From Patescibacteria group bacterium UBA6241 (GTDB taxonomy: Bacteria > Patescibacteriota > Minisyncoccia > Phycocordibacterales > Phycocordibacteraceae), in NCBI GenBank assembly GCA_002441425.1, contig DJWB01000001.1, positions 224,602 to 288,601 on the forward strand: a stretch of 64,000 nt of DNA. The letters run 5' to 3'. Each line of letters starts with the position of its first letter. The first letter of the stretch is position 1. The notes under the pieces are model-generated. The model ran no database searches and had not been told where the DNA came from. It worked only from the letters and a program-made list of their open reading frames with translations. Positions 6,261-63,071 of the stretch are shown here, in pieces. The position numbers and the translations under genes were made by a program.

Positions 6261-6350
6261 AAAAGGCACTCTTCAAAAGGGGTGCTTTTTGCGTAAATAG
6301 GCATATACTCTTCCTTAGATCATGGCCGCTACTGGCACTGGTCTTTTGTA

Positions 6351-6896
6351 TTGGAGGAGGGAACTGTGGAGCTTCCACGACTAGTACTGCTAACAACGCG
6401 AGGGAAGGCAAGTCTCGTTGCAGAACGGGATCGCCTGAAATCTGAGTTGCGGACGATTCGCGAGAATCGGCCGTCGCTTGATGCCCGCTCCCCTGGGAAC
6501 ACCAGCAGCGGGACTCGCATGGCGGGCGAAAATGCCCGGCAAGAGGACCTCTACCTGCAACGCGTAGAGGAAATCCAGCATATTCTGAGCGTTGCGCAAA
6601 CTGCGCCGAAACCGAAAGGGGTAAAGACGGTTCAAATCGGGCACATCATAACTCTGTGTTATGCCTCATGGGTTGAAAAAACCCCTGGGGGTCCGAAGAC
6701 CTCTCGCCGCACGCGCAGGTACTACGAAATCGTTGGCTTCCGCGAGGGAGACTGCGATACGACGCCAGCACGTCTCTGCTACGAGGCGGGCCTGGCGAAA
6801 CATTTCGTGGGGGAATCCAAGGGCCACAAGGTCCTGGTGCGCATGGATGGAGAAGTCCGTCCGGTTACCCTCACCAACATCAAGATGCCCAAGTAG
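6351..6896 (+). CDS. GreA/GreB-family (Gfh/Rnk-like) transcription factor paralog on a GC-rich cassette
   Basis: C-terminal FKBP-like region YYEIVGFREGDC...GLAKHFVGESKGHKVLVRMDGEVRPVTLTNI parallels the GreA C-terminus. N-terminal coiled coil. The tool start is TTG 6351; the likelier start is GTG at about 6366, after GGAGGAGGG. GC-rich with GC3-rich codons, unlike the flanking genes. Confidence 0.55.
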   Translation: MEEGTVELPRLVLLTTRGKASLVAERDRLKSELRTIRENRPSLDARSPGNTSSGTRMAGENARQEDLYLQRVEEIQHILSVAQTAPKPKGVKTVQIGHIITLCYASWVEKTPGGPKTSRRTRRYYEIVGFREGDCDTTPARLCYEAGLAKHFVGESKGHKVLVRMDGEVRPVTLTNIKMPK

Positions 6897-6972
6897 GGAG
6901 GACCTGGGCAAGTAAAGCGCCATCTCGTAGAAAGCGGGGTGGCGTTAGTGTGTATATGGTATCGTACTAGCA

Positions 6973-7929
6973 ATGGAATCAGACAAGCCTATTTTGCTCT
7001 CAGGTATCAAACCAACAGGGACCCCCCATATTGGCAATTACTTTGGTGCACTTCGTCAATTTGTAGAATTTCAAACTATTGGCACCCATCAGTGCTATTT
7101 CATGATTGCGGACTACCACGCATTAAACTCAGTCCAGAACGCAGGCCAGATGAGAGAGCTAACTAAGGAGCTTGTTTTAACGTTCTTAGCTATAGGACTT
7201 AATCCAGACAAGGTAGTTATCTTTAAACAGTCTGATGTGCCTGCACACACGGAGCTTGCATGGATTTTTGACACCATCACTACGGTTCCATACCTTATGC
7301 GCGCACATGCATACAAGGATGCAGAAGCAAAAAAGCATGAAATATCTGTAGGCACTTTTAACTATCCAATGCTCATGGCTGCAGATATTCTTTTGTATAA
7401 CGCAGCGAGAGTACCGGTTGGACAGGATCAGAAGCAACATATTGAATACGCGAGAGATACTGCCGAGAAGTTCAACCGTATTTATGGAGAAACCTTTGCG
7501 GTTCCTGAGGAATACATTGTTCCTGACGTTGCTATTGTCCCTGGAATTGACGGGCAAAAGATGAGCAAGAGTTACAACAACACGATCCCTCTCTTTGCGA
7601 GCCGTTCAGAAATTGAAGAGCTAGTTATGAGTATTGTTACAGACTCTTCAGGAGACCGACCTGAGAATGTGTATCAAATGCATAGACTACTCAAGTCTGA
7701 GCATGATTTGGTACCTGTATACGAAGAACATAAAGGAAAGTACAAAGCATTGAAGGAAGCACTCATAGAAGATCTTGATGCGTTCATAAAACCGATGCGA
7801 GAAAGATATGCAGAACTTGCTGCAAATCCTAAGATTGTCTCGGAAACTTTGGAAAAGGGAGCAGAGTTCGCGCGAGCACGTGCTGAGGAGAAAATTGAAG
7901 AGGTACGCAGGGCAGTTGGGGTTGCATAA
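6973..7929 (+). CDS. trpS: Tryptophanyl-tRNA synthetase
   Basis: Motifs GIKPTGTPHIGNYFGAL and KMSKS. Length 318 aa. Confidence 0.9.
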   Translation: MESDKPILLSGIKPTGTPHIGNYFGALRQFVEFQTIGTHQCYFMIADYHALNSVQNAGQMRELTKELVLTFLAIGLNPDKVVIFKQSDVPAHTELAWIFDTITTVPYLMRAHAYKDAEAKKHEISVGTFNYPMLMAADILLYNAARVPVGQDQKQHIEYARDTAEKFNRIYGETFAVPEEYIVPDVAIVPGIDGQKMSKSYNNTIPLFASRSEIEELVMSIVTDSSGDRPENVYQMHRLLKSEHDLVPVYEEHKGKYKALKEALIEDLDAFIKPMRERYAELAANPKIVSETLEKGAEFARARAEEKIEEVRRAVGVA

Positions 7930-8021
7930 GTTATCCCAAAGGGGATATTTACAGATATAGCACCTGTGGTATAGTTCGCGCGTGGCAACAAGTCCACGTC
8001 TGAACCTTAGGGAGGTTCGCC

Positions 8022-8213
8022 ATGCTTAACCACCATCTCCCGGAAAAGACGGCTCATTTTGAGGGCGAAGACTATGTCGCCCAACAAATGGCTTTCGTCG
8101 AAAGCCTGGGATCCGGGAACATGAACTCCGAGATCACCGGCTACCACTGCAACGGAGCGGCCAACCCGCCCTACGCTGAGGTCTTCTACCGGGAGCAAGC
8201 AACTGAACACTGA
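8022..8213 (+). CDS. Small hypothetical protein (63 aa) on GC-rich cassette
   Basis: Strong SD AGGGAGG 7 nt upstream of the ATG. GC-rich codons. A 10-bp-stem hairpin follows. No recognisable family. Confidence 0.35.
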   Translation: MLNHHLPEKTAHFEGEDYVAQQMAFVESLGSGNMNSEITGYHCNGAANPPYAEVFYREQATEH

Positions 8214-8224
8214 GCTCCCGTCCG

Positions 8225-8275
8225 CCCCGGACCCCACTGCTTCTTGTAAGCGAAAGGGTCCGGGGCGTGGTATTT
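8225..8275 (+). terminator. Hairpin (ccccggaccc / gggtccgggg, 10-bp stem) followed by a T-run
   Basis: Inverted repeat read directly from the sequence, downstream of the 63-aa ORF and upstream of aspS. Confidence 0.4.
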
Positions 8276-8285
8276 TATAGACATT

Positions 8286-9635
8286 ATGGAACGGACACTA
8301 ATTGGCGAGCTTTCCGCACACAAAGGAAGCGAGATTTGCATACAAGGATGGGTTGACGTGCGCAGAGACCAAGGGAAACTTGTCTTCTTTGATTTCAGAG
8401 ACAGGAGCGGGATTGTGCAGGGTGTAGTACTTCCAGGAGATGAGAGTCTTATGGAGATAGCTAAAACTGTCCGTACAGAAGCAGTTGTATCTGTGCAGGG
8501 AATTGTTAACGAACGTCCAGAGCGTAACGTACAGGCAGATAAGCTAAACGGAGATATTGAACTTGAAATCAAACGAATAACTATTCTTGCACTCCCACAG
8601 ACTCTTCCATTTGAGCTAGACGCAGAACTTAATCTTGATACGTATCTTGATTATCTCCCACTCACACTTCGCAGCGAGCGCAGTCGCGCAATCTTTACTG
8701 TGCAGGCTGAGATTGTGCGCGCATACCGTGCATTCTTAAACCAGGAAGGCTTTACAGAGTTCCAAGCACCAAAACTTATCGGAGACGATGCTGAGGGCAG
8801 CGGAGAAGTTTTTGAAGTCCCATACTTCTATGGGAAGACTGCGCATCTTGCCACTTCACCTCAGTTGTACAAGCAGATTATGGTTGGGGCATTGGAGCGA
8901 GTCTTTTCTATTGGCATCGTATTCCGCGCTGAGAAGCACAGCACAACAAGACACTTGAATGAGTACACCTCTATGGATATGGAGATGGGCTTCATCAAGG
9001 ACCACACAGATGTCATGGCAGTTGAGAACAAGCTTATGCGCTATGTCTCTGCTGAGCTTGCTAAGAACTGCAGCAAAGAGTTTGCGCTTCTTAAGGCTGA
9101 GGTGCCTGAAGTTCCAGAACGTATCCCAAATCTAAAGTTGCGTGAGGCGCAGGAATTGATTTTTGCAGAGACTGGCAAAGATAAGAGAAATGAACCAGAT
9201 CTTGAGCCGGAAGACGAGCGTTGGCTCTGTGAATGGTCTAAGCGTGAGCACAACTCAGACTTTGTGTTCGTTACGCACTATCCTGTCTCAAAGCGTCCTA
9301 TGTACACCTTTGAAGATTCAACTGATCCGGGATATACAAACGGGTTTGATCTTTTGTTCCGTGGCGTTGAGATAACTACAGGAGGGCAGCGTAGACATGA
9401 CTACGAGAATCTTATTGAAGGAATAAAAATGAAAGGTCTTGATCCTGAGAAGTTTTCTTACTATCTCCAGGCTTTCAAATATGGCATTCCACCGCACGGC
9501 GGATGGGGTATGGGTCTAGAGCGACTCACCGCAAAGTTCCTTAATCTTGCAAACGTTAAGGAGGCAACACTATTCCCACGAGATATTAACCGCATTGATA
9601 CTCGCCTTACGGAGAATGAACCAACTGAAGTATGA
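8286..9635 (+). CDS. aspS: Aspartyl-tRNA synthetase, short archaeal/type-2 form
   Basis: Motifs SPQLYKQ, FRAE, GGWGMGLERL. About 449 aa and lacks the GAD insertion. Confidence 0.85.
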   Translation: MERTLIGELSAHKGSEICIQGWVDVRRDQGKLVFFDFRDRSGIVQGVVLPGDESLMEIAKTVRTEAVVSVQGIVNERPERNVQADKLNGDIELEIKRITILALPQTLPFELDAELNLDTYLDYLPLTLRSERSRAIFTVQAEIVRAYRAFLNQEGFTEFQAPKLIGDDAEGSGEVFEVPYFYGKTAHLATSPQLYKQIMVGALERVFSIGIVFRAEKHSTTRHLNEYTSMDMEMGFIKDHTDVMAVENKLMRYVSAELAKNCSKEFALLKAEVPEVPERIPNLKLREAQELIFAETGKDKRNEPDLEPEDERWLCEWSKREHNSDFVFVTHYPVSKRPMYTFEDSTDPGYTNGFDLLFRGVEITTGGQRRHDYENLIEGIKMKGLDPEKFSYYLQAFKYGIPPHGGWGMGLERLTAKFLNLANVKEATLFPRDINRIDTRLTENEPTEV

Positions 9636-11044
9636 AGCTAACTTTTAAGAAAGGAGATATTGATTCTGCACCTAAGGGCTATACCCGTGTTCGCCTTACT
9701 GGGGAGTCACGAGGAACAAAGAGAGTAGTCCGTGAGAACGGAATTGAGTGGCTTGAAATTGGTGCAGGCAAAGGTTCAGAAATGAACCGTAGGAAGTTTG
9801 TGTTGCTGTGTCGCACAATCGTAAAAACTGCAAAAGAGAATAAGTGTAAGAAAATTGCACTACAGTTTGATCGCTCTCCAGAATACTTCTCTGGCATACA
9901 AAAGGATGTAACACCAGAGGAGGTTTCAAGAATTGCCGCAGAGAACTTTGAGATGGCAAACTTTGAGTTCACTACCTACAAGACAAAGCCTAAAGAGGGG
10001 TGGGTAGCTGTTGAAGAAATACTTTTGTACGGAAAATCCTCTGCCGCATTGGAGCGAGCAGCAAAGGATGGACAAGTAGTTGGACAGTATGTAAATACAT
10101 GCCGCGACCTTGCAAACACTCCTTCAAGCGACATGCCTCCACAGCAGCTTGCGAAGACTGCTAAAAAACTCGTAGCAAATCTTCCTGTTACGGTAACCAC
10201 ACTTGGGAAAGCGCAAATGCAGAAGCTGGGTATGGGAGGAGTTCTTGGCGTAGCAAAAGGTTCAAGCCAAGAACCTGCATTTATTGTTATGGAATACAAA
10301 GGTGCTGCTGGTGCGCCTGTAGTGCTTGTTGGGAAGGGAGTTACATTTGATTCTGGAGGAATCAACCTGAAGACAGATGGGGGACATGAGATGCATATGG
10401 ATATGTCTGGAGGCGCAGCCGTTATTAGTACAGTTGCACTCGCCGCGAAGTTAAAACTTAAGAAGCACGTTGTTGGACTCGTACCGGCAGTTGAAAACAT
10501 GCCTGGTCCTGCTGCATATCGCATTCATGACGTGCTCAAGACACTTTCAGGAAAGACGATTGAGGTTATGCATACCGATGCTGAAGGTCGTATTATTTTG
10601 GCTGATACACTCACGTATGCAAAGCGCTTCAATCCGAGCGTAGTTATTGATGTGGCAACTCTTACTGGTGCCTGTCATGTGGCACTTGGAGATTATGCGA
10701 GCGGGCTTTTTACAAGAGATGATGCGCTCGCACGCACCCTTGAAGACACTGCTGAAAAGAGCGGGGACTATGTATGGAGACTTCCACTTTGGGACGAATA
10801 TGAACCAGCAGTGCGCGGCACTATTGGAGACGTGGTGAATTCAGTTGGAGGCGCCTCAAGCAAGTACGGAGGTGCTACCAATGCTGCAATGTTCTTGTGG
10901 CAATTTGCCAAGGAGCTTAGCTGTCCCTGGGTTCATCTAGATATCGCTCCCCGTATGACTGCAGCACAGGGAGAAGAGCTTTCAAAGGGCGCAGTTGGCG
11001 CACCCGTTCGCCTGCTTATTTCCTTTATTGAGTCATGGAAATAA
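9632..11044 (+). CDS. pepA: Leucyl aminopeptidase (M17)
   Basis: Motifs VGKGVTFDSGG and M17 signature HTDAEGRIILAD. Confidence 0.85.
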   Translation: MKLTFKKGDIDSAPKGYTRVRLTGESRGTKRVVRENGIEWLEIGAGKGSEMNRRKFVLLCRTIVKTAKENKCKKIALQFDRSPEYFSGIQKDVTPEEVSRIAAENFEMANFEFTTYKTKPKEGWVAVEEILLYGKSSAALERAAKDGQVVGQYVNTCRDLANTPSSDMPPQQLAKTAKKLVANLPVTVTTLGKAQMQKLGMGGVLGVAKGSSQEPAFIVMEYKGAAGAPVVLVGKGVTFDSGGINLKTDGGHEMHMDMSGGAAVISTVALAAKLKLKKHVVGLVPAVENMPGPAAYRIHDVLKTLSGKTIEVMHTDAEGRIILADTLTYAKRFNPSVVIDVATLTGACHVALGDYASGLFTRDDALARTLEDTAEKSGDYVWRLPLWDEYEPAVRGTIGDVVNSVGGASSKYGGATNAAMFLWQFAKELSCPWVHLDIAPRMTAAQGEELSKGAVGAPVRLLISFIESWK

Positions 11045-11775
11045 CTAACACTCAGGGATTCACTATACGTGCCGGATCATTTGAGGGACCCTTTGAGCTC
11101 ATTATTGAGCTCATTGATAGAAGGAAGCTCTCTGTAAACGAGTTATCACTGACTCAAATCACTGACGACTATATTTCGTTTGTGCGTGGCCACGAAGCAT
11201 TTCCTATGGAGGATGCTGCGCAGTTTATTGGCGTAGCTGCCACACTTCTTCTTATAAAATCTAAGTCTTTGATTCCTGAACTGGAGTTGTCTACAGAAGA
11301 GGAGGAGGACGTTGATGATCTCAAACGGAGACTGATGCAGTACGAGAAAGTACGAGAAGCTATGAAGGAGCTTTCTCGTGTTTTTGGAACTGCAGTACTT
11401 GTTTCAGCGGGAGACCGTGTTCCTGAACCATTCTTTGCACCTTCACGTGATTTTACACAGGCAAGACTTTCAGAAGCTCTATTTAGCGCACTACAAACCT
11501 TGGAAAAGGCTGAGGAGAAATTGCCAGAGGCAAGAGTGCGCCCACTCGTTACCATTGAAGAGATGATGGATACACTTTTAAAGCGCGTTCAAACTGCCAT
11601 GACACTTTCATTTAAAGACTTCTCAAAGGGAAGTGCAGAGAAAGTTGAAGTTATTGTTTCTTTCTTGGCACTCCTTGAACTCGTTAAACAAGGCGCAGTT
11701 GAGGCATTGCAGCACGATCCGTTTGAAGATATTCGTATAACTAATACGAGTACAGGAGTTCCTCGGTACGGTTAA
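11035..11775 (+). CDS. scpA: Segregation and condensation protein A
   Basis: N-terminal FEGPFELIIELI...LSLTQITDDY is typical of ScpA. Confidence 0.8.
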   Translation: MEITNTQGFTIRAGSFEGPFELIIELIDRRKLSVNELSLTQITDDYISFVRGHEAFPMEDAAQFIGVAATLLLIKSKSLIPELELSTEEEEDVDDLKRRLMQYEKVREAMKELSRVFGTAVLVSAGDRVPEPFFAPSRDFTQARLSEALFSALQTLEKAEEKLPEARVRPLVTIEEMMDTLLKRVQTAMTLSFKDFSKGSAEKVEVIVSFLALLELVKQGAVEALQHDPFEDIRITNTSTGVPRYG

Positions 11776-12614
11776 AGCACAAACAAGAAGAAAAGGAGAG
11801 CTGCAACGATACGGTATATACCGAAAGAAATGAACGTATGCTTTCTCACGTACTGAAGAAGGAAACGAATCGCGAGAAGCGCAACAACAAACGAAACAAC
11901 GAACCCAACTCCTAAGTTGCCCGCATCTGCAGAGGAAAAAGCATGCGCACTTTTAAATAAGTCCAAAGCTGTTGCTGCTGCCATAACAGGAACTGCAAGC
12001 AAGAAGGAGAACTCAACAATAGCTACGCGGCGAACACCCATAACAAGACCACCAATGATTGTGGCAGCCGAGCGAGAGACTCCTGGAATAATAGCGAGTG
12101 CCTGGAACACACCAACAGCTATTGCCTGAGGATAGGTAATAGTAGTTACAGAATCCGCGCCATCTTCCTTCTCCTTATGGAGTAGTTCAAAGACAATAAG
12201 TGCAACACCCCCAATTCCAAGCGCCCAGAGCACAACTTCAACATTTCCAAGAAGATAGGTCTTCGCAAGGTCATGCAAGAGGAGCCCGATAATAGCGGTT
12301 GGTATAAATGCTGCAGCAATCTTTTTAAGTATTGAGAAATCTAGAAATGATCTCCAGTACAAGACTACAACTGCAAGAATTGCTCCTAGTTGGATGGCAA
12401 TCTCAAAACTCTTCAGAAACTCCGTAGAAGGGAGTCCAAGAAGCGTGCTCGTTAAGATGAGATGGCCAGTTGAGGAAATAGGGAGAAACTCAGTAATACC
12501 CTCAACAATTCCCAGGATGGCGCTATCTAGCAAAGTCATAGCAGCTAGTATAGCAGCCCATCCCCAGGTCAGGTGGGTTGCTGTTGAGCGAGGAGGCGGT
12601 ATTCTGACTAGCAT
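11772..12614 (-). CDS. uppP: Undecaprenyl-diphosphatase (BacA/UppP)
   Basis: Motif GIVEGITEFLPISSTGHL. Eight TM helices. Confidence 0.85.
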   Translation of the reverse strand: MLVRIPPPRSTATHLTWGWAAILAAMTLLDSAILGIVEGITEFLPISSTGHLILTSTLLGLPSTEFLKSFEIAIQLGAILAVVVLYWRSFLDFSILKKIAAAFIPTAIIGLLLHDLAKTYLLGNVEVVLWALGIGGVALIVFELLHKEKEDGADSVTTITYPQAIAVGVFQALAIIPGVSRSAATIIGGLVMGVRRVAIVEFSFLLAVPVMAAATALDLFKSAHAFSSADAGNLGVGFVVSFVVALLAIRFLLQYVRKHTFISFGIYRIVAALLFFLFVL

Positions 12615-13163
12615 ATGGCGCTCGCGCTCTCATCCCGATTAGAAGCCCTTCTTTTTGCCTCAGGCGAGCCGTTGGCAAAGACTAGACTCGCGACACTGCT
12701 TAATGTGTCTCAGGAGAGTATTGAGGACGCCCTTCACGCACTTTCTATAACACTTCAGGATCGGGGTCTTGCACTCGTTCAGACAGGTAGAGATGTTGAG
12801 TTGCGGACTGCCGCTGCAGCAGCTGAAGATATTAAGCATCTGCGTGAAAGCGAGCTTTCTCGCGATTTAGGCAAGGCAAGTCTTGAAACACTTGCACTTG
12901 TTATGTACAGAGGCAGCGCAACTCGTGGAGAGATTGACTGGGTTCGTGGCGTTAATTCAAGTGCAGCAGTCCGCTCTCTACTTTTGCGTGGATTAATTGA
13001 GCGCATTGAAGATCCTGCAGACAAACGCCGTGCAAGATACCAAGCCACCATAGACGCATTAGCTCATCTAGGCATACAAGCAAAAGAAGAACTTCCGCGG
13101 TATGCTGAGCTCAGCGCAGCACTAGCAGCACACGAAGCGAAGGCAGACGAAAGCGAATTATGA
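12615..13163 (+). CDS. scpB: Segregation and condensation protein B
   Basis: N-terminal LEALLFASGEPL motif. Length 182 aa. Confidence 0.8.
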   Translation: MALALSSRLEALLFASGEPLAKTRLATLLNVSQESIEDALHALSITLQDRGLALVQTGRDVELRTAAAAAEDIKHLRESELSRDLGKASLETLALVMYRGSATRGEIDWVRGVNSSAAVRSLLLRGLIERIEDPADKRRARYQATIDALAHLGIQAKEELPRYAELSAALAAHEAKADESEL

Positions 13164-14134
13164 CCACTGAGCAACCTGATTTACAGACACTAATCCGCAA
13201 ACTTGAAAAGCGGCATCAAAAGAAACAGGCGACCACTGCGCTCGTGGCAGGTACTGCCGTACTCGCACTCACCGTACTTGTTGCACCGCTTTTTATGCAA
13301 CCAGAGAAGAGTCAGATTGTTGAAGCTCCAGCTCCTCTTGCTCCTGTTGCAGTGTCAGATGCATTCGCAGATTTACGTCTGGAAGGGAAGGCTGCAATTG
13401 TATTTGATTTAACTACTCAAGAAACTCTTTATGAGCGCAATGCACGCTCTCAGCTTCCACTCGCGTCTCTCACTAAACTTCTCACCATATACGCAGCCGC
13501 CAACACACTTGCCCCTGAGTCTCAGGTTTCTATATCAAGCAGTGCACTTGCTGCGGAAGGAGAGAGCGGCTTCTCTGAGGGAGAGACTTTCACCTTTAAC
13601 GATCTTGCGCGCTTCACCCTCATTTCTTCTTCTAACGATGGAGCGGCAGCAATTGCAGAAGCTGCCGCTACAAAGCAGGCAATGTCAGGAAAGAATCTTC
13701 TTGCAGGGGCTGCAGCTGCAGCTGGGCTCTCTCAGACGTATGCACTAAATGGAACTGGACTTGATGAGAGCACCTCTGTCTCAGGAGGATACGGGTCTGC
13801 ATATGATGTAGCGCGTCTTTCAGGGGCTCTTCTTGAGAAGGCGCCTGATATTGCACACGCAACCGTCTCTAGTATGGGATCAGTCCGTTCTTCTACAGGA
13901 GCAGTACACACGCTTCCTAATACGAATCCTGATGTAGTACACATTCCAAATCTACTTCTTTCAAAGACAGGATTCACAGATCTCGCAGGAGGAAATCTTG
14001 CCGTCGTGTATGACGCAGGTATCGGGCACCCCGTTGCCGTTGTAGTGCTTGGATCAAGCAGAGAGGGTAGGTTCACAGATGTTGAGCGGCTTATTAATCG
14101 GACCCAGGAGTACTTTATTGGGATCGCACCATAG
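13160..14134 (+). CDS. dacA: D-alanyl-D-alanine carboxypeptidase (S11, low-MW PBP), N-terminally anchored
   Basis: Motifs SLTK (SxxK), SSSND (SxN), KTGFT (KTG). Confidence 0.7.
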   Translation: MTTEQPDLQTLIRKLEKRHQKKQATTALVAGTAVLALTVLVAPLFMQPEKSQIVEAPAPLAPVAVSDAFADLRLEGKAAIVFDLTTQETLYERNARSQLPLASLTKLLTIYAAANTLAPESQVSISSSALAAEGESGFSEGETFTFNDLARFTLISSSNDGAAAIAEAAATKQAMSGKNLLAGAAAAAGLSQTYALNGTGLDESTSVSGGYGSAYDVARLSGALLEKAPDIAHATVSSMGSVRSSTGAVHTLPNTNPDVVHIPNLLLSKTGFTDLAGGNLAVVYDAGIGHPVAVVVLGSSREGRFTDVERLINRTQEYFIGIAP

Positions 14135-28026: not shown

Positions 28027-28452
28027 CTACTCAGCCTCAACAATAACTGAAATCTTTCCAAATACTTCTCCAACAGCAACAGGAACTTCAATTGTTCCGA
28101 GTTCTTTAACAGGCTTTTCAAGCTTGATTGCCTCAACGGGAAGGCTTGTAGCAGATGCAATCTCTGCAGCATCAACTGCGTCATACAGATGTCCCTTCTC
28201 GTTTGCCTTCTTGCGAATAACAATGCGCTCCTCAGCGAGTGCAGCAATGCGGTCCTGTACGAGCTTCACATCAAGCTCCTTACGATCCTTGTTCTGCTGT
28301 GCACGAAGCTCAGCCTGCTTTACGTTTGCTGGAGTTGCTGGCGCCGCCATGCCGCGAGGGATAAGGAAGTTAAGGGCGTGTCCGCTCGCACATTCAATAA
28401 TGGCTCCTGCACGCCCTGTGTTCTTCACGTCTTTGAGTAGTACGACTTTCAT
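28027..28452 (-). CDS. rplI: Ribosomal protein bL9
   Basis: N-terminal MKVVLLKDVKNTGRAG. Confidence 0.85.
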   Translation of the reverse strand: MKVVLLKDVKNTGRAGAIIECASGHALNFLIPRGMAAPATPANVKQAELRAQQNKDRKELDVKLVQDRIAALAEERIVIRKKANEKGHLYDAVDAAEIASATSLPVEAIKLEKPVKELGTIEVPVAVGEVFGKISVIVEAE

Positions 28453-40951: not shown

Positions 40952-41111
40952 GTGAGGAATTACTTACCCTCGCGCGAATCTACTTCGAGAATATTTAGCC
41001 CTCTCACGCCTCGCGGACTCGCGCTCGGGGTTGAATGCATATCTGATTTCTGAATTTAGGAGGGGGGTATGAAAAATGCATTCGGGAAATAAACAGCCCG
41101 GGGCTGTTTGG
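40952..41111. repeat. IR1 left copy (about 160 bp)
   Basis: About 90% identical to the reverse complement of 42982-43158. Begins with gtgagga. Confidence 0.85.
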
Positions 41112-41201
41112 TATTAAGAAAATGTCGCGAGCGCGGCTGGTATTCTGAGGAGAGGATATGAAGCAAAAATCTATGTATCGTGAGGAGTTTTATGAAGAAC
41201 T

Positions 41202-42944: not shown

Positions 42945-42981
42945 ATCGAACCTTCCATTCAAAACTATAAGGTGGGAATTT

Positions 42982-43158
42982 TCCACAAAGCAGCCCGAGA
43001 CATTGTCTCGGGCTGCTTTGTTCCCGAATGCATTTTTTCATACCCCCCTCCTAAATTCAGAAATCAGATATGCATTCAACCCCGAGCGCGAGTCCGCGAG
43101 GCGCGAGAGGGCTAAGTATTCTCGAAATGGGTTCGCGCGAGGGTTAGGAGTTCCTCAC
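42982..43158. repeat. IR1 right copy (inverted), includes an extra 12-bp-stem palindrome
   Basis: Hand alignment to 40952-41111 in reverse complement. Confidence 0.85.
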
Positions 43159-43283
43159 AAAAAGATACTTCCTCGGAAGATAGTTCGGAATACAATCCCG
43201 CCCATGGCGGGATTGTATTCATTTTCGCGCGCAGACGCGCGGCATTCTCAGACGGCGGGGATACTCTGAAATGCATGGATTTG
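43155..43283. repeat. IR2 left copy (129 bp) containing a 33-bp perfect palindrome (43188-43220) and a GC palindrome (43226-43241)
   Basis: Identical to the reverse complement of 44719-44847. Confidence 0.9.
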
Positions 43284-43330
43284 CACTTCTCTTTCGAGCC
43301 ATACCGTCGCAAGTGATACCATGCAAAGAT

Positions 43331-44875: not shown

Positions 44876-44916
44876 TCCGTGAGAGGGATCTGTCCTAACC
44901 GTTAGACGATGAGGCC
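44845..44916 (-). tRNA. tRNA-Glu (anticodon CTC), no encoded CCA
   Basis: Hand-built cloverleaf: acceptor ggcctca/tgaggtc, D-arm identical in layout to E. coli tRNA-Glu, anticodon loop ctCTCac, T-loop ttcgatt. Confidence 0.85.
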
Positions 44917-49799: not shown

Positions 49800-50543
49800 T
49801 TATCCTAAGAGCGCCGCAAATCTCGGTATAAGTGTGGAAGCTTCTGGAGAGGCCTTACTAACATCAGTTGGTTCAACACCCTCTGGCAAGTAGCCGGGTG
49901 AAAGCAGCAACTTTCTTGTGACATCTTGGGCAGTGAGCTCTGGATGAAACTGGAAAGTGTACATCTTCGGACCATAGCGAAGGCCACTAAACTTACACTG
50001 CGCTCCTGTAGCAATAAGTTCTGCTCCCTCAGGCAATGTAGTTAGGCTGTCTTTGTGGCCATACTGCGCAATAAAAGCATCAGGCATACCCGTAAAGAGA
50101 GGGTCTGATTTTCCCGTGTCTGTTAAGAGCACTTCGTGAGAACCTATCTTTTTCTGTGTGGGATCACACGATACTTTCCCTCCCTTCCATTCACCAATAA
50201 TCTGGTGCCCGTAACAAATACCGAGCGTAGGAATAGCATTTTGGAAAATATACTCAAGCAAAGGAGTTACCTGAGTGAGTATGGCTTGTGAAGTGGAACG
50301 AGCAGGGTCCTCCATTGCCCTTCCTCCATCAAAATCATATTCTCCAGAACCTCCGAAAATAACGCCTGCAGCGTCTTCAATAATTTGCTCAGGCATGTTC
50401 CAAGGGATAGATGCGTCAAGAGCATTCTTAAACACAGGGTAGTACTCAGTACCCGCGAGCGCACGAGTGTATTCTCCTTGCTCCCCTTCAACCATCTCTG
50501 GGCGGGTGCGGGATTGTATAACGAGAATCTTTTTCATAGTCAC
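49800..50543 (-). CDS. Class I glutamine amidotransferase-like protein
   Basis: Motif GICYGHQI with the nucleophile Cys, and a GATase1 fold pattern. Confidence 0.7.
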   Translation of the reverse strand: MTMKKILVIQSRTRPEMVEGEQGEYTRALAGTEYYPVFKNALDASIPWNMPEQIIEDAAGVIFGGSGEYDFDGGRAMEDPARSTSQAILTQVTPLLEYIFQNAIPTLGICYGHQIIGEWKGGKVSCDPTQKKIGSHEVLLTDTGKSDPLFTGMPDAFIAQYGHKDSLTTLPEGAELIATGAQCKFSGLRYGPKMYTFQFHPELTAQDVTRKLLLSPGYLPEGVEPTDVSKASPEASTLIPRFAALLG

Positions 50544-50616: not shown

Positions 50617-51609
50617 CTACTCGCGAAACAGCAGCGGTCCCGTCACGGTCTGGTCGGTGCCATGGACGATGAGCGAATCAAGCGCCATCCACACTCCGCC
50701 CAGTGGCCTCCACTTGCCAGTGGCAAGATCAAAGCCGTAGAACATCCGATAGATCGCGTTACGCGAGGGCTCATGCAGAAGACGCATGGGCTCCACGAAC
50801 GGCTGCCGGTACATCTGTGACGTGGGTTGACTGCGAATCAGCTTCAAGAGCTGAGGGATGCTGTCCGTATCGCTCTTGCGCATCGGAACACCCCGTTCTC
50901 GCAGTTCCTGCTTCATGCCCTGAGGCAGGTGCACCTTGATGTGCCTGCTTCTGGTCCCCTGTACTGGCTTGAGCACACTCGCGCTTGCGAGCGCGGGCGA
51001 GATGTACCAGTCCAGATCTCCGTCATGTGTGGACGAGACCAGATCCCACCAGCCAAACTGGAGTCCGTACTGTTTGTTCCCCTCGTGAGAGATGGAACTA
51101 ACCGAGCGGTCCTCCAACTCGTGGAATTCGGTTTCCTCGGGCCTGCTTCTCGCGAGAAGCATTCCCTCATGATCTTTCGCTTCTTCAAGCGTCAGACCCG
51201 GACCGAAATGCAGTTCGTCATCGGTCGCCCGATAATTGCTCTGCACCCAGCGAATTGCTGGCCACGACGCTTGAACCCTTTTCAGGTTCTGGGCGAAAGC
51301 CGGATTGCAGAGTCCCGTGAGACCGAGGCCACACGGGCGCTCTTCAATCTCGTAGGGTCTGATCTGATTGTACACGTCCACGACGCAATCAATCCGCACG
51401 ATCAGAGAAGGCACGCCGCAGTGCTTGCCGACCCAGGTGTTCCCCACAGGAAACACGCGAGACCAGTCTTTCAGGATTTCTACGCCCTGAAAGACAGCTT
51501 CTGTGGGCATGTACTCCACCTCCTGCGACAAGTTGGTTCTCCACTCGCCGCCGTGGTGTTTGATAGCTCCCGAAGGTGCTTCAGCACCGGGAAAATCAAC
51601 TCCGTCCAT
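50617..51609 (-). CDS. Hypothetical protein (330 aa) on GC-rich cassette
   Basis: GC3-rich codons. SD GGAAGGAAG precedes the ATG. Bounded upstream by a 20-bp-arm palindromic terminator. No family recognised. Confidence 0.45.
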   Translation of the reverse strand: MDGVDFPGAEAPSGAIKHHGGEWRTNLSQEVEYMPTEAVFQGVEILKDWSRVFPVGNTWVGKHCGVPSLIVRIDCVVDVYNQIRPYEIEERPCGLGLTGLCNPAFAQNLKRVQASWPAIRWVQSNYRATDDELHFGPGLTLEEAKDHEGMLLARSRPEETEFHELEDRSVSSISHEGNKQYGLQFGWWDLVSSTHDGDLDWYISPALASASVLKPVQGTRSRHIKVHLPQGMKQELRERGVPMRKSDTDSIPQLLKLIRSQPTSQMYRQPFVEPMRLLHEPSRNAIYRMFYGFDLATGKWRPLGGVWMALDSLIVHGTDQTVTGPLLFRE

Positions 51610-54369: not shown

Positions 54370-55133
54370 GTCGTTGAGAAAGGATTTAGATACGGACGAA
54401 TGCCCACTGCAGAGCGTGGAGAAGAAGGATCATTCCCTACTGAGCTAACCACACCCACGGGCGCAAATGAGGAACCGTCTATATATACAAAATCTCCCTC
54501 TGAAACTCCTGACTCTCTTGCTGCAGTTGCAGTAAACGCTCCGCTTCCTTTGCCACTCAAGATAAGTGCCAGTCGCTCTTCCCCAACCCAGCTCGTCGTT
54601 TCGCGTGCGGGTGCTGAGTATAAGAGTACGCGTGCAGTGCGTTCAGTTACGCTTTCAATAGTTCCAAGCGGTACTCCTCCAGGACCAAGTACACGCATGC
54701 CTGGCCCAACTCCTGCGCTCTCTCCCTGATCTAGAACAAACGTGTCGTACGGAGACACTGGCGGACGAACAAGTACTGCTGCAAGTATTTCGTCAGTGCG
54801 TTCTGTGCGTGTGCCGAGCAACTTAGTTAAGTCTTGCACTTTTGCCTGAAGAGCTAGCTGCTCTGCCTTCAGAGCCGTATTTTCTGCAAGAAGCTCATCA
54901 CGCTCTTTGGTGAGGGTGGTTGCATTGCCAAAGAATGAAGTGGCGCTTTGTACATTTGCTGAAAGTGCAGCGCCCGTCTTCCAAAAAGGAGTACCGAGAG
55001 CGGCGAGTGCTCCAGGCGCAACTGCGCGCAGTATAAGAAACAGGACAGCAATACCCACTACAGACAGCGAGGCAGGACCTATCCAGGAATTGCCTATGAG
55101 CGAATTACGTTTTCGGGAGAATTGCGTCTTCAT
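54348..55133 (-). CDS. mreC: Rod shape-determining protein MreC
   Basis: TM segment, coiled coil, and a beta-rich C-domain. Position after mreB. Confidence 0.7.
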   Translation of the reverse strand: MKTQFSRKRNSLIGNSWIGPASLSVVGIAVLFLILRAVAPGALAALGTPFWKTGAALSANVQSATSFFGNATTLTKERDELLAENTALKAEQLALQAKVQDLTKLLGTRTERTDEILAAVLVRPPVSPYDTFVLDQGESAGVGPGMRVLGPGGVPLGTIESVTERTARVLLYSAPARETTSWVGEERLALILSGKGSGAFTATAARESGVSEGDFVYIDGSSFAPVGVVSSVGNDPSSPRSAVGIRPYLNPFSTTWVTILP

Positions 55134-56160
55134 GCATAAATGCGTCCGCCCACGGACGAGGATCTTCTGTAACTACACCAGTACCGCGCACCACAGCAGT
55201 AAGTGGGTCGCTTGCTACATGTACAGGCACGCCGAGCATTTTAGCTAAAAGCTCTGGAAGACCACGCACCAGCGCACCTCCTCCAAATACGGTTACACCC
55301 CGTTCAAGTACATCTGAGAGAAGTTCAGGAGGAGTGTGTTCAATAACATCCTTCATAGCTTCCATAAGAGAATCCATTGAAGGCGCGAGTGCCTCTCTCA
55401 CATGCGCATCGGTAAGCACAATCTCTCTTGGGAGTCCTGTTGCAAGATCGCGGCCACGAATTGCCTTTTCTAGTCCTGTCTCAAGCGGCAGTACCGCACC
55501 AATAGCAATCTTTGTGTCTTCAGCGGTCTTCTCGCCAATAGCAAGCTGGAACTCGCTTCGTACGTAGTCAATGATGTTGTCATTGAACCGATCTCCTGCA
55601 ACCTGCGAACTCTTTGACGCAACCGTGCCTCCGAGCGCAATAACTGCAATGTCTGTTGTACCAGCTCCGATATCAAGAACCATGGTTCCCAATGCTTCCA
55701 TAACGGGAAGTTTTGCACCAATAGCACCTGCCATAGGTTCCTCAAGGATAAATACTTCGCGTGCACCTGCCGTGAGTGCAGCATCACGTACCGCACGACT
55801 CTCCACGTTTGTAACTCCGGTTGGAACTCCCACCACTACACGTGGCCCAAACAGACGAGAACGTCCTCCCTGCGCTTTATTAATGAAATACGCAAGTAAC
55901 TCTTCTGTTACTTCAAAATCAGAGATAACTCCATGCGAGAGAGGACGCACTGCACGAATGTGCGGAGGGGTCTTGCCAAGCATTTGCTTTGCGCTTTGCC
56001 CAACTGCCACCATCTGTCCTGTCTTTTCGTTAACGGTAACAACAGAAGGCTCTGCGATAACAATCCCGCGGCCACGAACATAGACAAGCGTATTGCCGGT
56101 ACCTAAATCAATACCAATGTCAGTTGAGAACAAAGAGTTCTTTGAAAATCGGTTAGCCAT
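55105..56160 (-). CDS. mreB: Actin-like rod shape-determining protein MreB
   Basis: Motifs DLGTGNTLVYV and EPMAGAIGA. Confidence 0.9.
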   Translation of the reverse strand: MANRFSKNSLFSTDIGIDLGTGNTLVYVRGRGIVIAEPSVVTVNEKTGQMVAVGQSAKQMLGKTPPHIRAVRPLSHGVISDFEVTEELLAYFINKAQGGRSRLFGPRVVVGVPTGVTNVESRAVRDAALTAGAREVFILEEPMAGAIGAKLPVMEALGTMVLDIGAGTTDIAVIALGGTVASKSSQVAGDRFNDNIIDYVRSEFQLAIGEKTAEDTKIAIGAVLPLETGLEKAIRGRDLATGLPREIVLTDAHVREALAPSMDSLMEAMKDVIEHTPPELLSDVLERGVTVFGGGALVRGLPELLAKMLGVPVHVASDPLTAVVRGTGVVTEDPRPWADAFMHEDAILPKT

Positions 56161-57509: not shown

Positions 57510-58109
57510 ATGAGACTCTGTGTATCTGTTTCGGGACGCACCGGAACACAGAAGGCTGAGATCCTTTGTGAGCTACACCGGCTTGCTGAGGGCGCGCGAT
57601 TTGCGCGAGGAGACACCGATCGGGATTACCGGCCCGGCGATCTTCTGAACGTTCGCAACTATCTCACCCGGAATTCGTTTGACTGTATGCGTCGGAGTGA
57701 GTCGTTCTTGTGGACGATCCGTCATGACGGCGCAGACTACGGAATGTCGGAAGGCGCGCTTCAGTTTGCGCTTCGCGGGCGTGAGGACGAACCGATTCTA
57801 GCGCTTACGAGTGTGGTGCCGCGTATGGTTCCCGAGCTTCACAAGGCGGTTCACGAGATCACCGGCGATCCTGAATCCTATGTACCGTTTTATGTTCTCT
57901 CCACAGAAGAGGACCTGATGCGGCGCAGATGGACAACGGATGCGGGGTACCGAGACCGCCGGACTGCCGAACGGCTCTTTGAAGAAAAGGACTGGTTCAG
58001 AGAAGCGAGAAACAGCTCTGTTCCCTTCCGGTTCGTTCGCAACAACGTGAGCCCCGAACACACCGCGAGGCGCATTCTAACGCGCCTTGGCATTGAGCCG
58101 CTTTCCTAA
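57510..58109 (+). CDS. Hypothetical protein (199 aa) on GC-rich cassette, possible degenerate P-loop/kinase-like
   Basis: SD GAGGGAGGAAG precedes the ATG. N-terminal VSVSGRTGTQKAEI is loosely P-loop-like. GC3-rich codons. Confidence 0.4.
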   Translation: MRLCVSVSGRTGTQKAEILCELHRLAEGARFARGDTDRDYRPGDLLNVRNYLTRNSFDCMRRSESFLWTIRHDGADYGMSEGALQFALRGREDEPILALTSVVPRMVPELHKAVHEITGDPESYVPFYVLSTEEDLMRRRWTTDAGYRDRRTAERLFEEKDWFREARNSSVPFRFVRNNVSPEHTARRILTRLGIEPLS

Positions 58110-58122: not shown

Positions 58123-58719
58123 TTATATAGACTGAATCTCTTGAATGAGTTCTGGAAACTCTTCTTGCAGAAAATGTCCCTTATCTGGAAAGGTTCGCAC
58201 TGCTGCATCTGGCAGTTTTTCTTTGTACTTCTCAAGCGCTGAGAACGGGACTATAGGATCGTCTGTGCTGTGATACACGAATATCTTTGACGTCTGCGCA
58301 GATACCTTTTCAAGAGAATCCGGGAGTACAAAGTCTGCAAGTGAATAGTCCGTATCACTGGTATCAAATGGCGCAGCAACAAGCCACAGTGCTGAGATAG
58401 ATACAGGAAGCGTGTGTTCGCTCAGATACTTTGCAAGAAAGATTCCTCCCAATGAATGCCCAACCAATCTCACCTCGTCTTTAAGGAATGGAACCACCTT
58501 TTCAAACCAAATACACCACTCCACATACTTGGCGTTGTATTTGGAAGGCATGGTAGGCGCAAAGACCAACCATTCATCTCCGAGTTCCTCAGCAAGAGAA
58601 TTCTTCCACCGTCCACCAAATTCTTTAAACGGATCGTATGTCCATTCCTTCAGTGCATCCAAGTATGCGTCGTATGTATCAAAGGTTTCTCCCCCGTGAA
58701 TGAATACGAGCTGCTTCAT
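58123..58719 (-). CDS. Alpha/beta hydrolase (YdeN/RBBP9-like serine hydrolase)
   Basis: Nucleophile elbow GHSLGG. Length about 198 aa. Confidence 0.7.
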   Translation of the reverse strand: MKQLVFIHGGETFDTYDAYLDALKEWTYDPFKEFGGRWKNSLAEELGDEWLVFAPTMPSKYNAKYVEWCIWFEKVVPFLKDEVRLVGHSLGGIFLAKYLSEHTLPVSISALWLVAAPFDTSDTDYSLADFVLPDSLEKVSAQTSKIFVYHSTDDPIVPFSALEKYKEKLPDAAVRTFPDKGHFLQEEFPELIQEIQSI

Positions 58720-61588: not shown

Positions 61589-61637
61589 AGAGACAGCTTG
61601 AATACTAAAGGCCCGCTATATGCGGGCCTTTAGTATT

Positions 61638-61666
61638 TTGACACTAGTACCTATGTTAGGTATAAT
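61638..61666 (+). promoter_or_regulatory. Perfect sigma70 consensus promoter TTGACA-17 nt-TATAAT
   Basis: TTGACA at 61638-61643 and TATAAT at 61661-61666, read directly. SD GGGGAG and ATG 61702 follow. Confidence 0.6.
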
Positions 61667-61701
61667 ATAGGTATCGTCCGCGCCTTCAGGGGAGAATTCC
61701 A

Positions 61702-62133
61702 ATGCGCACCAGTGTCCTTTCCATTCTTGTTTTCGGTTCCGTCATCGGCGTCGCGGGCATCGCCTGCGCCCAGGATCGTGCGCCGGCCAACATCCAGTTC
61801 GTGCACGAGCCGACCGGCCAGGAGTTTTCTCCGCCGCCGGTTCGGTTCGTCCGGACCAACCTGGCCGAGCAACGCATCGCCGAACGGCAGCGGGCCATGG
61901 ACAACGTGACCTGCGCCTACGAGCACGGCGTCGCCGGCTGCGAACAGCAGCCGTTCGCGAGCGACGAGCGCATTCTGCTCGCCGAGCGTCTGTGCGCGGA
62001 ACGCGTGCATCAGGTCTATTCCTATCGCAGCCAGATCTATCTGACCTGTCTGCGCGAGGAACTGGTTCCCCAGGGCTTCACCGTCCTGGAACCCAGCCAG
62101 GTCGCCGCTTACTACAACGTCGCGACCAACTGA
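61702..62133 (+). CDS. Secreted Cys-containing hypothetical protein (143 aa) on GC-rich cassette
   Basis: Signal peptide MRTSVLSILVFGSVIGVAGIACA. Very GC-rich codons. Terminator at 62155-62186. Confidence 0.45.
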   Translation: MRTSVLSILVFGSVIGVAGIACAQDRAPANIQFVHEPTGQEFSPPPVRFVRTNLAEQRIAERQRAMDNVTCAYEHGVAGCEQQPFASDERILLAERLCAERVHQVYSYRSQIYLTCLREELVPQGFTVLEPSQVAAYYNVATN

Positions 62134-62214
62134 CCGAAACCCGAAAAACAATGAGAGGCCCCCGCAGCGATGTGTGGGGCCTTTTAATTTCTATACAGTG
62201 GAGGTTACTTATAC

Positions 62215-62243
62215 TTGACAAAATATTGTATATGGACTATAAT
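62215..62243 (+). promoter_or_regulatory. Second perfect TTGACA-17-TATAAT promoter
   Basis: TTGACA at 62215-62220 and TATAAT at 62238-62243. Confidence 0.6.
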
Positions 62244-62296
62244 AGTATCAGTAGTGCGGTATGTGAGCCGCTAACCCTCTCTTGTGGAGATCCGAG

Positions 62297-63004
62297 ATGC
62301 GTCCCATCGCACTTGCCCTTTCTGCTTCCATTACTGCCCTGATCGCCTTCCCCGCCCTCGCCGACTGCGACACCGTCGTCTACGGCAGCGTCCAGAGCGC
62401 CTATGTCTACCAGGACATCGGCGTGGTCGCGACCGACAGACCGGTTCTGCAAGCCGGCGTCAGCAAGGTCTGCGGCAAATTCACCTATGATCTGTGGACT
62501 TCAACGGAGCTGTCCACCGACGGCCCCTACGGAAACCGCAGCTACGGTGACGAGCTGGACCTGACGGTCAACTACGACACGGAAATCAGCGACACCCCGA
62601 TCGGCGTCGTTAAAGTCCAGGTTTCGGCAGCGTACTACATCGCCGCCGACTTCGGGAACGTGGACGACGACTTCGGCCAGGTCTATGTGGACTTCGGTCG
62701 GCCCATTCAATTCGGGAGCGCTACGGTCACTCCGTATGTGCGCCCGATGCAGTGGCTCGGCGTGGAGACCATCCAAGACACCACCCTGGTGCGTGCGGGC
62801 GTTCGCTTCAACATCCCACTGGATCAGAACTGGTCTGTCCGTGGAGATGCTTCGCGCACCTCCGACCTCACGCATGGGACGGGCGTCTTCCGCGGCGACG
62901 TGACGGCAACCCGAGATATGGGAAGCTGGAACCTCTCGCTCAGCGCGAAGTTCACCGAGGCCACGCAAACGGTCTTCGGGATCGGCGCAAGTCGCGTCTT
63001 CTGA
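62297..63004 (+). CDS. Secreted beta-rich hypothetical protein (about 235 aa) ending in ...RVF, on GC-rich cassette
   Basis: Signal peptide MRPIALALSASITALIAFPALA. Alternating hydrophobic pattern and a C-terminal Phe, as in outer-membrane beta-barrels. The tool ORF starts at GTG 62282. Terminator at 63034-63069. Confidence 0.45.
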   Translation: MRPIALALSASITALIAFPALADCDTVVYGSVQSAYVYQDIGVVATDRPVLQAGVSKVCGKFTYDLWTSTELSTDGPYGNRSYGDELDLTVNYDTEISDTPIGVVKVQVSAAYYIAADFGNVDDDFGQVYVDFGRPIQFGSATVTPYVRPMQWLGVETIQDTTLVRAGVRFNIPLDQNWSVRGDASRTSDLTHGTGVFRGDVTATRDMGSWNLSLSAKFTEATQTVFGIGASRVF

Positions 63005-63071
63005 ACCAACGACGAGGTGCAGTAATGAAAGAAAAGGACCCCTTCGCTTCCGAGCGTCGGGGCCTTTTTAA

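Follow-up and report, generated by a model that had tools for sequence, protein, structure and literature searches.

GC3-rich single-gene islands of a small Patescibacteria genome probably occupy recurrent slots supplied by a gene pool shared with GC-richer relatives

The 64,000-nucleotide stretch of DNA analysed here (the window) comes from Patescibacteria group bacterium UBA6241 (assembly GCA_002441425.1, contig DJWB01000001.1, positions 224,602 to 288,601), a Paceibacteria-like member of the Patescibacteria with a genome of roughly 0.6 Mb. Between its conserved genes lie nine short single-gene islands rich in G and C at third codon positions (GC3), which we call i1 to i4, LSR (a large serine recombinase gene) and i6 to i9. 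We conclude that the islands are likely to be genuine accessory genes in recurrent slots, drawn from a pool shared with GC-richer Patescibacteria relatives and then ameliorating. Slot genes would pass from one related lineage to another and often take the place of a distant homolog in the same slot; on arrival their codon usage would be GC-rich, as in most of the clade, and would then decay slowly towards the composition of the host. The most likely mode of entry would be uptake of DNA that then recombines in or near conserved flanks or at terminator microhomologies. A site-specific mechanism can be identified for the LSR element alone, namely integration at the 3′ end of a tRNA-Glu gene. Discordant composition, patchy presence and discordant divergence, the marks of a horizontally acquired gene, are all found.

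Composition and structure of the islands

A preliminary description of this DNA had listed nine compositionally discordant islands between housekeeping genes, and all nine open reading frames (ORFs) are present at, or inside, the ranges that it gave. As a background we used 55 genes of at least 100 amino acids (aa), obtained by a greedy choice of non-overlapping ORFs in the window. Their GC3 is 0.408 ± 0.035 (s.d.; maximum 0.486), whereas that of the nine islands is 0.60–0.81 (z = 5.5 to 11.5). The claim of GC3-rich codon usage unlike that of the neighbours is thus upheld, and the opposite outcome, no difference in GC3, was tested and failed. GC content at first and second codon positions (GC1 and GC2) is ordinary in the islands, so the discordance sits at synonymous positions. 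Together the islands sum to about 6.0 kb, or 9% of the window. At 47.8% GC for the window, the genome is not low in GC in absolute terms, as had been proposed, but it is so relative to its own clade.

The islands also proved to be real single-gene modules, each predicted to be separately expressed, with its own promoter or Shine–Dalgarno sequence and its own terminator. Every ribosome-binding motif quoted earlier was found, namely GGAGGAGGG (i1), AGGGAGG (i2), GGAAGGAAG (i6) and GAGGGAGGAAG (i7). The proposal that each island has its own hairpin terminator was supported by a scan for i6, i7, i8 and i9 and by eye for i2 and i4. As also anticipated, most island proteins have no assignable family: no Pfam domain was detected in any of them except the recombinase. 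Their borders consist of ordinary terminators and promoters, with no attC-like repeat and no shared motif.

Recent exchange of the i8–i9 block

The most direct evidence for horizontal movement comes from the two adjacent modules i8 (61590–62192, + strand; promoter 61638–61666, gene 61702–62133, terminator 62160–62179) and i9 (62193–63053, + strand; promoter 62215–62243, gene 62297–63004, followed by its terminator). The first encodes a predicted secreted, Cys-containing protein of 143 aa (GC3 0.81) and the second a protein of 235 aa (GC3 0.79). Their sigma-70-like promoters are the only two perfect (12/12) matches to TTGACA-17-TATAAT between 50.4 and 63.2 kb, and they lie immediately upstream of i8 and i9. 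We compared the window with loci and contigs of relatives (L-numbers; P0011 is a single protein) whose core proteins are 60–95% identical. Against L083, the core flanks of the block are 65–85% identical in nucleotide sequence, with synonymous divergence (dS) saturated at 1.2–3.2. By contrast, the i8–i9 block, including its non-coding spacers, is 91–98% identical, and the step in identity falls sharply, directly after the stop codon of the upstream 154-aa gene. Within the block, dS is 0.07 for i8 and 0.21 for i9, with ratios of non-synonymous to synonymous divergence (dN/dS) of 0.31 and 0.12, respectively. In the comparison with L086, dS is 0.22 for i8 and 1.2–2.5 for the core. These values are direct evidence that the i8–i9 block was exchanged horizontally, and recently.

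The block also varies by presence and absence. L086–L089 lack exactly window positions 62193–63053, that is, the promoter, gene and terminator of i9. A repeated terminator tail, GGGGCCTTTT(T)AATT, borders the indel and is found at 62171–62192 and 63054–63075 of the window and at 10450–10491 of L086. This arrangement suggests that entire promoter–gene–terminator units are deleted or inserted through microhomology. Because the more distant L084, L046 and L085 have i9, its absence is most simply explained by deletion in, or replacement of, the module of the L086 lineage.

Recurrent slots and allele replacement

Divergence is discordant with that of the flanks for four islands. It is lower for i8 and i9 and higher for i3, whose counterpart in L177 is 48% identical between flanking genes that are 87–100% identical at the protein level, and for i7 in L086 (58% identity, compared with 75% in L176). 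These two cases, and the 42–47% identity of the i8 and i9 homologs in L084, are signs of allele replacement. For i4, i6 and i7, dS against L176 is saturated like that of the core, with no discordance; these three islands therefore predate that split. The earlier proposal of horizontal acquisition accordingly stands for i8 and i9 (dS 0.07–0.22 against more than 1.2 in the flanks), for the presence or absence of i9 and for the LSR insertion, which has no counterpart in L176 and L093. It does not stand as a recent event for i4, i6 and i7, which are common to the sister lineage.

Variable intervals occur at conserved positions in every relative examined: tRNA-Tyr/TrpRS, TrpRS/AsnRS, S41/L9, YqeY/TruB, TruB/tRNA-Glu, GreA/MraZ, aminoacyl-tRNA synthetase (aaRS)/M50 and holB/MreB. 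Homologs of i9 adjoin a holB-like gene in L046 (43% identity) and L084 (47%), the latter also carrying an i8 homolog (42%), and some relatives hold unrelated small genes in island slots. The islands had been thought to sit in naive intergenic gaps; instead, the sites are recurrent variable slots, often with a distant positional homolog in relatives, and several islands (i3, i4, i6, i7, i8 and i9) are, by sequence similarity, divergent versions of the gene in the same slot of relatives rather than fresh insertions. Comparison with sister genomes, which the preliminary description had advised, did reveal empty sites for i2, i3, i7, i9 and LSR; positional homologs of several islands occupy the slots of other relatives.

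Core composition varies widely among these genomes. GC3 of the core is 0.90 in L092, 0.74–0.91 per gene in L085 (one gene 0.52), 0.81 in L093, 0.72 in L003, 0.71 in L008, 0.66 in L005, 0.53 in L097 and 0.51 in L094; it is about 0.41 in the window, L083/L176 and L086/L177, and 0.35–0.52 per gene in L084. Within one Patescibacteria clade of conserved gene order, core GC3 thus spans about 0.37 to 0.90, a very large spread. The window genome and its closest sisters have a core that is unusually GC-poor for the clade, the others lying at 0.5–0.9. The GC-rich sisters L003, L008, L085, L092 and L093 (core GC3 0.71–0.90) therefore provide a sufficient donor pool within the clade.

The sign of the deviation depends on the recipient. 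Slot genes lie above core GC3 in GC-poor genomes, in which the positional homologs are GC3-rich too (0.83 for i8 and 0.75 for i9 in L084, 0.83 in L177 and 0.56–0.66 in L176/L086). In GC-rich relatives they lie below it: 0.66–0.89 in L092, most of them below the core value of 0.90, and 0.41–0.71 in L093 against 0.81. Intermediate GC3 of slot genes in hosts of either composition is the expected outcome of a common flexible pool in circulation. The spacer between PBP2 and GreA in L093 holds a 132-aa gene (5378–5776) with GC3 0.41 against a core of 0.81 (z = −11), a mirror image of the islands. In L097, a 675-kb contig with a core of about 0.53, a 235-aa singleton with GC3 0.76 (7281–7988) lies in the HATPase–TyrRS spacer, which measures only about 20 bp in the window.

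Amelioration and its limits

If the islands came from a GC-richer pool, their third positions should be drifting towards the host, and two observations accord with this. We polarised third-position changes by parsimony across three lineages for two islands (i7 and i8) and seven core genes. The ratio of GC-to-AT to AT-to-GC changes is 13:5 in i8 and 52:36 in i7, compared with 426:527 in the core (odds ratio 1.96, Fisher p = 0.0014). This GC-to-AT excess implies that the islands are off compositional equilibrium and drifting towards the host. In addition, GC3 is lower in the old islands i4, i6 and i7 (0.60–0.69) than in the young islands i8 and i9 (0.79–0.81).

Several points weigh against the account of a shared pool followed by amelioration. 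No donor sequence was found, no Patescibacteria relative is close enough to be the donor, and the nearest non-sister homologs of i9 are 44–47% identical whatever the GC content of their genomes. Comparisons with the closest sisters cover seven of the nine islands (i3, i4, i6–i9 and LSR). The polarisation rests on two islands with partly saturated sites, neither of which is significant alone (binomial p about 0.1 each). Relative synonymous codon usage of the islands does not follow the host core (r = −0.14) and resembles that of the cores of L085, L092 and L093 (r = 0.74–0.80); this likeness to GC-rich genomes, which had been predicted, is consistent with a pool within the clade but not specific to it, since a correlation is to be expected with any GC-rich genome. 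The mechanism of recombination is an inference. Finally, i4, i6 and i7 have kept a high GC3 in two lineages despite saturated dS. Their persistence fits simple amelioration only marginally: dS may have only just reached saturation, the genes may have been re-imported, or the loci may be subject to a force of their own, GC-biased gene conversion for instance.

Alternative explanations for the islands

The last of these possibilities can be extended to all slots. A locus-specific force, either GC-biased gene conversion at hot spots or synonymous selection, could keep slot genes GC3-rich while the genes themselves are mostly vertical, fast-evolving and lineage-specific. This would explain why i4, i6 and i7 have GC3 of 0.56–0.69 in both the window and L176 although their dS is as saturated as that of the core, why i8 and i9 have GC3-rich orthologs even in the distant L084, whose core lies at 0.35–0.52, and why i3 has GC3 of about 0.8 in both lineages; moreover, the same loci show signs of frequent recombination. 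However, a force that raises GC does not predict the opposite deviation in GC-rich relatives, nor do the polarised substitutions of i7 and i8, biased from GC to AT relative to the core, agree with it. The i8–i9 block, spacers included, is also 5–20 times less diverged than its flanks, for which synonymous constraint alone is insufficient. We therefore regard a locus-specific force as an unlikely general explanation.

The preliminary description had proposed that genes were captured one at a time, each into a formerly empty site, from an unrelated donor of high GC content, for example the host on which an episymbiont lives. The GC-rich codon usage of the islands and the emptiness of some sites in relatives agree with such a donor, and the predicted fold and C-terminal Phe of i9, which are as in the porins of diderm bacteria (discussed below), make an ancient diderm origin of the i9 family conceivable. 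No such donor is visible, however. We searched 1.84 billion representative proteins by HMMER with a concatenated query of six island proteins, and i1, i3, i4 and i7 have one to three relatives each. Every island relative with a source name belongs to the Patescibacteria or Paceibacterota, and for none of the islands with named relatives did we find a homolog outside the Patescibacteria. The i6 family is mostly without names (none of 10 sampled distant relatives carries one), so its taxonomy is only partly covered. Given also the positional homologs in the same slots and the sufficiency of GC-rich sisters as donors, a foreign source is very unlikely.

It is extremely improbable that the islands are not protein-coding and represent GC-rich structured RNAs or spurious ORFs. 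GC-rich DNA does yield long ORFs on both strands, most islands lack a Pfam domain and i2 has no homolog among the 150 best matches listed. Nevertheless, the islands have no Rfam match, GC3 exceeds GC1 and GC1 exceeds GC2 in one frame, dN/dS is below 1, homologous proteins are kept in relatives and the fold of i9 is confidently predicted; the non-coding reading survives for i2 alone.

The null hypothesis of the preliminary description, a metagenomic mis-join or a chimeric consensus of GC-poor and GC-rich populations, is rejected. Its starting point is that the source is a MEGAHIT metagenome contig (ENA ERZ27315056, k141_820366; 608 kb), and we found no positive evidence for it in comparisons made at the assembly level. 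Independent JGI, Logan and NCBI assemblies repeat the junctions: the JGI contig L002 (3300001592 Draft_10009145) is 100% identical to window positions 4838–14012, across i1 and i2; the JGI contig L090 (Draft_10002056) is 99.95% identical to 18546–39090, across i3; and the Logan contig L091 is 100% identical to 28412–29345, also across i3. Diverged sister metagenome-assembled genomes (MAGs) from other projects agree in gene order and carry homologs of the islands at the corresponding positions, and the GC shift falls within complete promoter–gene–terminator modules. For i1–i4 and i6–i9, an artefact would require all assemblies to share reads and error, which is impossible for diverged sister MAGs. 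Because independent assemblies and sister MAGs keep the junctions, a mis-join is excluded for practical purposes. L090 differs from the window at 11 positions over 20.5 kb; its DnaB gene is split into three ORFs of 129, 105 and 128 aa (L090 4720–6071), compared with an intact 454-aa gene at 33012–34376 of the window, probably through assembly or sequencing errors of the older contig.

A porin-like protein in the i8–i9 module

The protein encoded by i9 has a hydrophobic N terminus ending in ALA/DC, a predicted signal peptide. Its AlphaFold2 model (predicted local distance difference test score (pLDDT) 80, predicted template-modelling score (pTM) 0.73) is an antiparallel β-barrel of twelve long strands, for which the top Foldseek matches are OmpG, KdgM, NanC and Tsx (probability 1.0), together with autotransporter barrels. 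The C-terminal residue, F235, is invariant. On the strength of the model, i9 is therefore predicted to combine the signal peptide, closed barrel and C-terminal aromatic residue of an outer-membrane porin. It resembles the 12-stranded porins KdgM, NanC and Tsx, and OmpG, in all three features, but it is only 7–14% identical to them, has no Pfam match and sits in a Patescibacteria genome. To our knowledge, Patescibacteria are considered to be without an outer membrane, and neither BamA nor lipopolysaccharide genes were found in the 64-kb window. The family is small: among 5.8 billion proteins it forms four clusters at 90% identity, its own and three others at 44–47% identity.

Together, i8 and the porin-like i9 constitute a clade-restricted secreted module that is swapped between lineages, which makes them reasonable candidates for host interaction. 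We can imagine, as a quite unlikely speculation, that the slots are reserved for proteins of the symbiont–host interface whose alleles are replaced again and again. In that case i8, which is secreted, the porin-like i9 and the 154-aa protein with its membrane anchor would form a module that is exported by a monoderm-type Patescibacterium, is inserted in the outer membrane of its diderm host and serves there as a nutrient channel. If that were true, host switching or an arms race would underlie the frequent exchange of the module (dS 0.07–0.2), and the GC3 excess would persist through constant re-import or through biased gene conversion, not as the trace of a single acquisition.

An invertible serine recombinase gene at tRNA-Glu

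The LSR island belongs to an insertion of about 3.9 kb (40951–44846) that extends from the TruB terminator to the 3′ end of tRNA-Glu; GTGA is found at each of its two junctions. It comprises a 580-aa gene of no known family (41202–42944) and the LSR gene itself (43271–44875, + strand; 534 aa). The element is a compositional mosaic, as the former gene has native GC3 (0.41) and the latter 0.60. The site is empty in L176 (16640–16800) and in L093, where a MurE–TruB spacer of 170 bp has tRNA-Glu alone. Its integration target is tRNA-Glu(CTC) at 44844–44916 (− strand). The encoded protein has the Resolvase (PF00239), Recombinase (PF07508) and Zn_ribbon_recom (PF13408) domains above cutoffs and an N-terminal YARKST motif; it matches the PHROG integrase profile (E = 5e-82) and is 24–28% identical to phage integrases.

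The gene lies between perfect inverted repeats of 129 nt. The left arm (43155–43283) spans the region upstream of LSR and its start codon, and the right arm (44719–44847) lies inside the 3′ coding end and abuts tRNA-Glu. Each arm carries a 33-bp palindrome, GAATACAATCCCGCC-CAT-GGCGGGATTGTATTC, which by its sequence is a plausible recombinase site. The LSR segment occurs in the opposite orientation in L175 (positions 1–4162, a contig of another ENA assembly) and in the protein P0011. Inversion swaps the C-terminal tail of LSR (the last 9–14 residues), DLTGNRTPI being exchanged for EELLTLARTHFENT, as seen in P0011; this is the sole change seen. As the repeats are shorter than the k of 141 implied by the contig name (k141_), k-mers span each junction. 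With inverted repeats at its ends and an occurrence in either orientation, the LSR segment resembles an inverton. A second pair of inverted repeats (40948–41076 and 43034–43162; 129 nt, 93% complementary) flanks the 580-aa gene and may form a second invertible segment beside the recombinase; the two pairs are not clearly related to one another.

Identity of the remaining islands

The first island, i1 (6366–6896, + strand; 176 aa, GC3 0.64, z = 6.5), lies in the TyrRS–TrpRS slot, whose left edge is formed by tRNA-Tyr(GTA) at 6175–6260 (+ strand; found by ARAGORN and Rfam). The same tRNA precedes other cargo in L097 and L085, and i1 shows no similarity to the L097 occupant of the slot. It would be a very divergent GreA-like paralog: the GreA-like label given earlier holds in so far as NCBIfam GreA matches it over its whole length (E = 7.6e-7); the score is only 29 bits, however, where the cutoff is 145, and the sequence is GreA-like without being assignable to the GreA/GreB family. 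There is no Pfam match, and BLASTP against the canonical GreA, which is present in the same genome besides i1, gives E = 0.088. Its relatives in the representative library are 71%, 51% and 35% identical, and searches with i1 and i7 against PDB sequences returned nothing meaningful.

The orphan i2 (8022–8213, + strand; 63 aa, GC3 0.69) has a promoter-like site, the AGGGAGG motif and a hairpin terminator. No homolog was found among the 150 best matches listed from the 1.84 billion representatives. The TrpRS–AsnRS spacer that holds it measures 356 bp in the window, compared with 50–73 bp in L096, L097 and L099.

In the S41–L9 slot, i3 (28546–29100, − strand; GC3 about 0.78) has no assigned function. 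It had been described as 199 aa, which is correct when the gene is read from an upstream GTG at 29145; the database gene call starts at 29100 and gives 184 aa. The slot is empty in L105 (34 bp), and the positional homolog in L177 has GC3 0.83. The YqeY–TruB slot holds i4 (39718–40053, + strand; 111 aa, GC3 0.62), also of no assigned function. Its ortholog in L176 is 70% identical, with a saturated proportion of synonymous differences (pS) and GC3 0.56, whereas L092 and L093 have unrelated small genes in its place.

Beside a GATase gene in the GreA–MraZ slot lies i6 (50617–51609, − strand; 330 aa, GC3 0.69). Its ortholog in L176 is 81% identical (dS 1.37, GC3 0.62). The family is large and uncharacterised, with hundreds of 50%-identity clusters at 26–48% identity. 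It has no match in Pfam, in the PDB (searched with a family profile) or in PADLOC, and a single-sequence AlphaFold2 model is unusable (pLDDT 32); judged by eye, its motifs may hint at an ATP-grasp protein.

The protein of i7 (57510–58109, + strand; 199 aa, GC3 0.60), in the M50–aaRS slot, appears to be guanylate-kinase-like with a degenerate P-loop. It matches phrog_1815 at E = 8.8e-4 and TIGR03263 at E = 0.015, and its P-loop reads SGRTGTQKAE against the consensus GxxGxGK[ST], with the second Gly replaced; the loop of the L003 positional homolog is intact (GATGTGKS). We rejected guanylate kinase proper as an identity for i7, since the score of 14.9 bits is below the family cutoff of 160 and the P-loop is not intact. 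Of its positional homologs, those in L176 and L086 have the identities given above and that in L003 is 25% identical over the full length; in all of them dS is saturated and GC3 is 0.60–0.66. The slot is empty in L005, L008, L010 and L046 (54–75 bp). In L087, a Logan contig whose i8 protein is identical to that of L086, the aaRS gene (446–2386) is called with 499 rather than 414 aa and the i7 slot contains no called gene, which may reflect a deletion or fusion.

No homolog of i6, i7 or i8 was detectable by tblastn (E ≤ 1e-5) in 80 GTDB loci. The nearest GTDB species representative, Parcubacteria bacterium C7867-004, has 73% identity for the class-II aaRS. Rfam at gathering thresholds found just two structured RNAs in the window, tRNA-Tyr, which abuts i1, and tRNA-Glu, which abuts the recombinase. 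PADLOC returned no defence system. A phage vector for the islands was rejected: PHROG gave no match beyond the integrase and the weak guanylate-kinase match, and IMG/VR holds no relatives of the i6 or i9 families.

Relation to known systems

Gene transfer within the phylum is already documented in Patescibacteria, and the present case is ordinary gene exchange in unusually clear form. Gios et al. (2025, mSystems; PMC12455944) described hundreds of islands and singly transferred genes in 125 Patescibacteria genomes from an aquifer, using MetaCHIP and IslandViewer on MAGs. There, as much as 13% of the length of a genome was attributed to horizontal gene transfer (HGT), other Patescibacteria were the source of 83% of the transfers detected, and the proposed route was DNA uptake and homologous recombination; the word ‘hotspot’ is absent from that paper. 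Both cases concern small, streamlined Patescibacteria genomes with single transferred genes or small islands. The present one differs in that genes change one by one at fixed syntenic slots, with evidence from dS, allele replacement and a sign of deviation that depends on the recipient; these features and a porin-like secreted protein are what is specific here.

Like integron cassettes, the islands are single-gene units of foreign composition. Unlike them, they are scattered, have neither an integron integrase nor an array and carry a promoter and terminator each. We rejected integron cassettes as their identity on these grounds, there being no attC and the sole recombinase being a serine integrase. 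The LSR element resembles serine-integrase elements at tRNA sites, and invertons, in its recombinase domains, its site at the 3′ end of tRNA-Glu and its two orientations. It departs from invertons in that the recombinase gene lies inside its own invertible segment, with repeats that overlap its start and 3′ coding end, and no regulated target is evident.

In the hot spots of Oliveira et al. (2017, Nat Commun), accessory genes reportedly cluster in a few core-flanked intervals, many of them without mobility genes, and turn over through homologous recombination in the flanks. The slots described here differ in being mostly one gene wide, in a 0.6-Mb genome, and in often containing distant homologs of the same family.

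Imported genes are said, since Lawrence and Ochman (1997), to keep the composition of the donor, chiefly at third codon positions, and to drift towards that of the recipient. Such amelioration would account for both the substitution bias from GC to AT and the lower GC3 found in the older islands, whereas i4, i6 and i7 hold their GC3 excess past synonymous saturation, longer than the simple model predicts.

On the reading of a shared pool, a very small genome of the symbiont type turns over accessory genes at a few slots between essential genes, one promoter–gene–terminator module each, from a pool shared with relatives that differ by up to 0.5 in GC3, and slot genes stand out as GC-rich where the host is GC-poor and as GC-poor where it is GC-rich. 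Composition-based HGT detectors and tools for MAG decontamination might flag or remove such genes as contamination.

Other genes of the window

RmuC (35395–36456), a conserved core gene, has mildly raised GC3 in the window (0.554, z = 4.1) and also in L177 (0.53), so GC3 outliers are not all accessory genes. Conversely, three accessory genes have native GC3: the GATase gene (49800–50543), an alpha/beta hydrolase gene (58123–58719) and the 580-aa gene of the LSR element. By tblastn they were not found in more distant relatives, the sole weak match being the hydrolase (32%, L058); they are either older, fully ameliorated gains or genes from GC-poor donors. Two MreB paralogs lie about 7 kb apart (55105–56160 and 63072–63926); they are 91–98% identical at the protein level across the clade, and one of them is the right flank of the i8–i9 slot.

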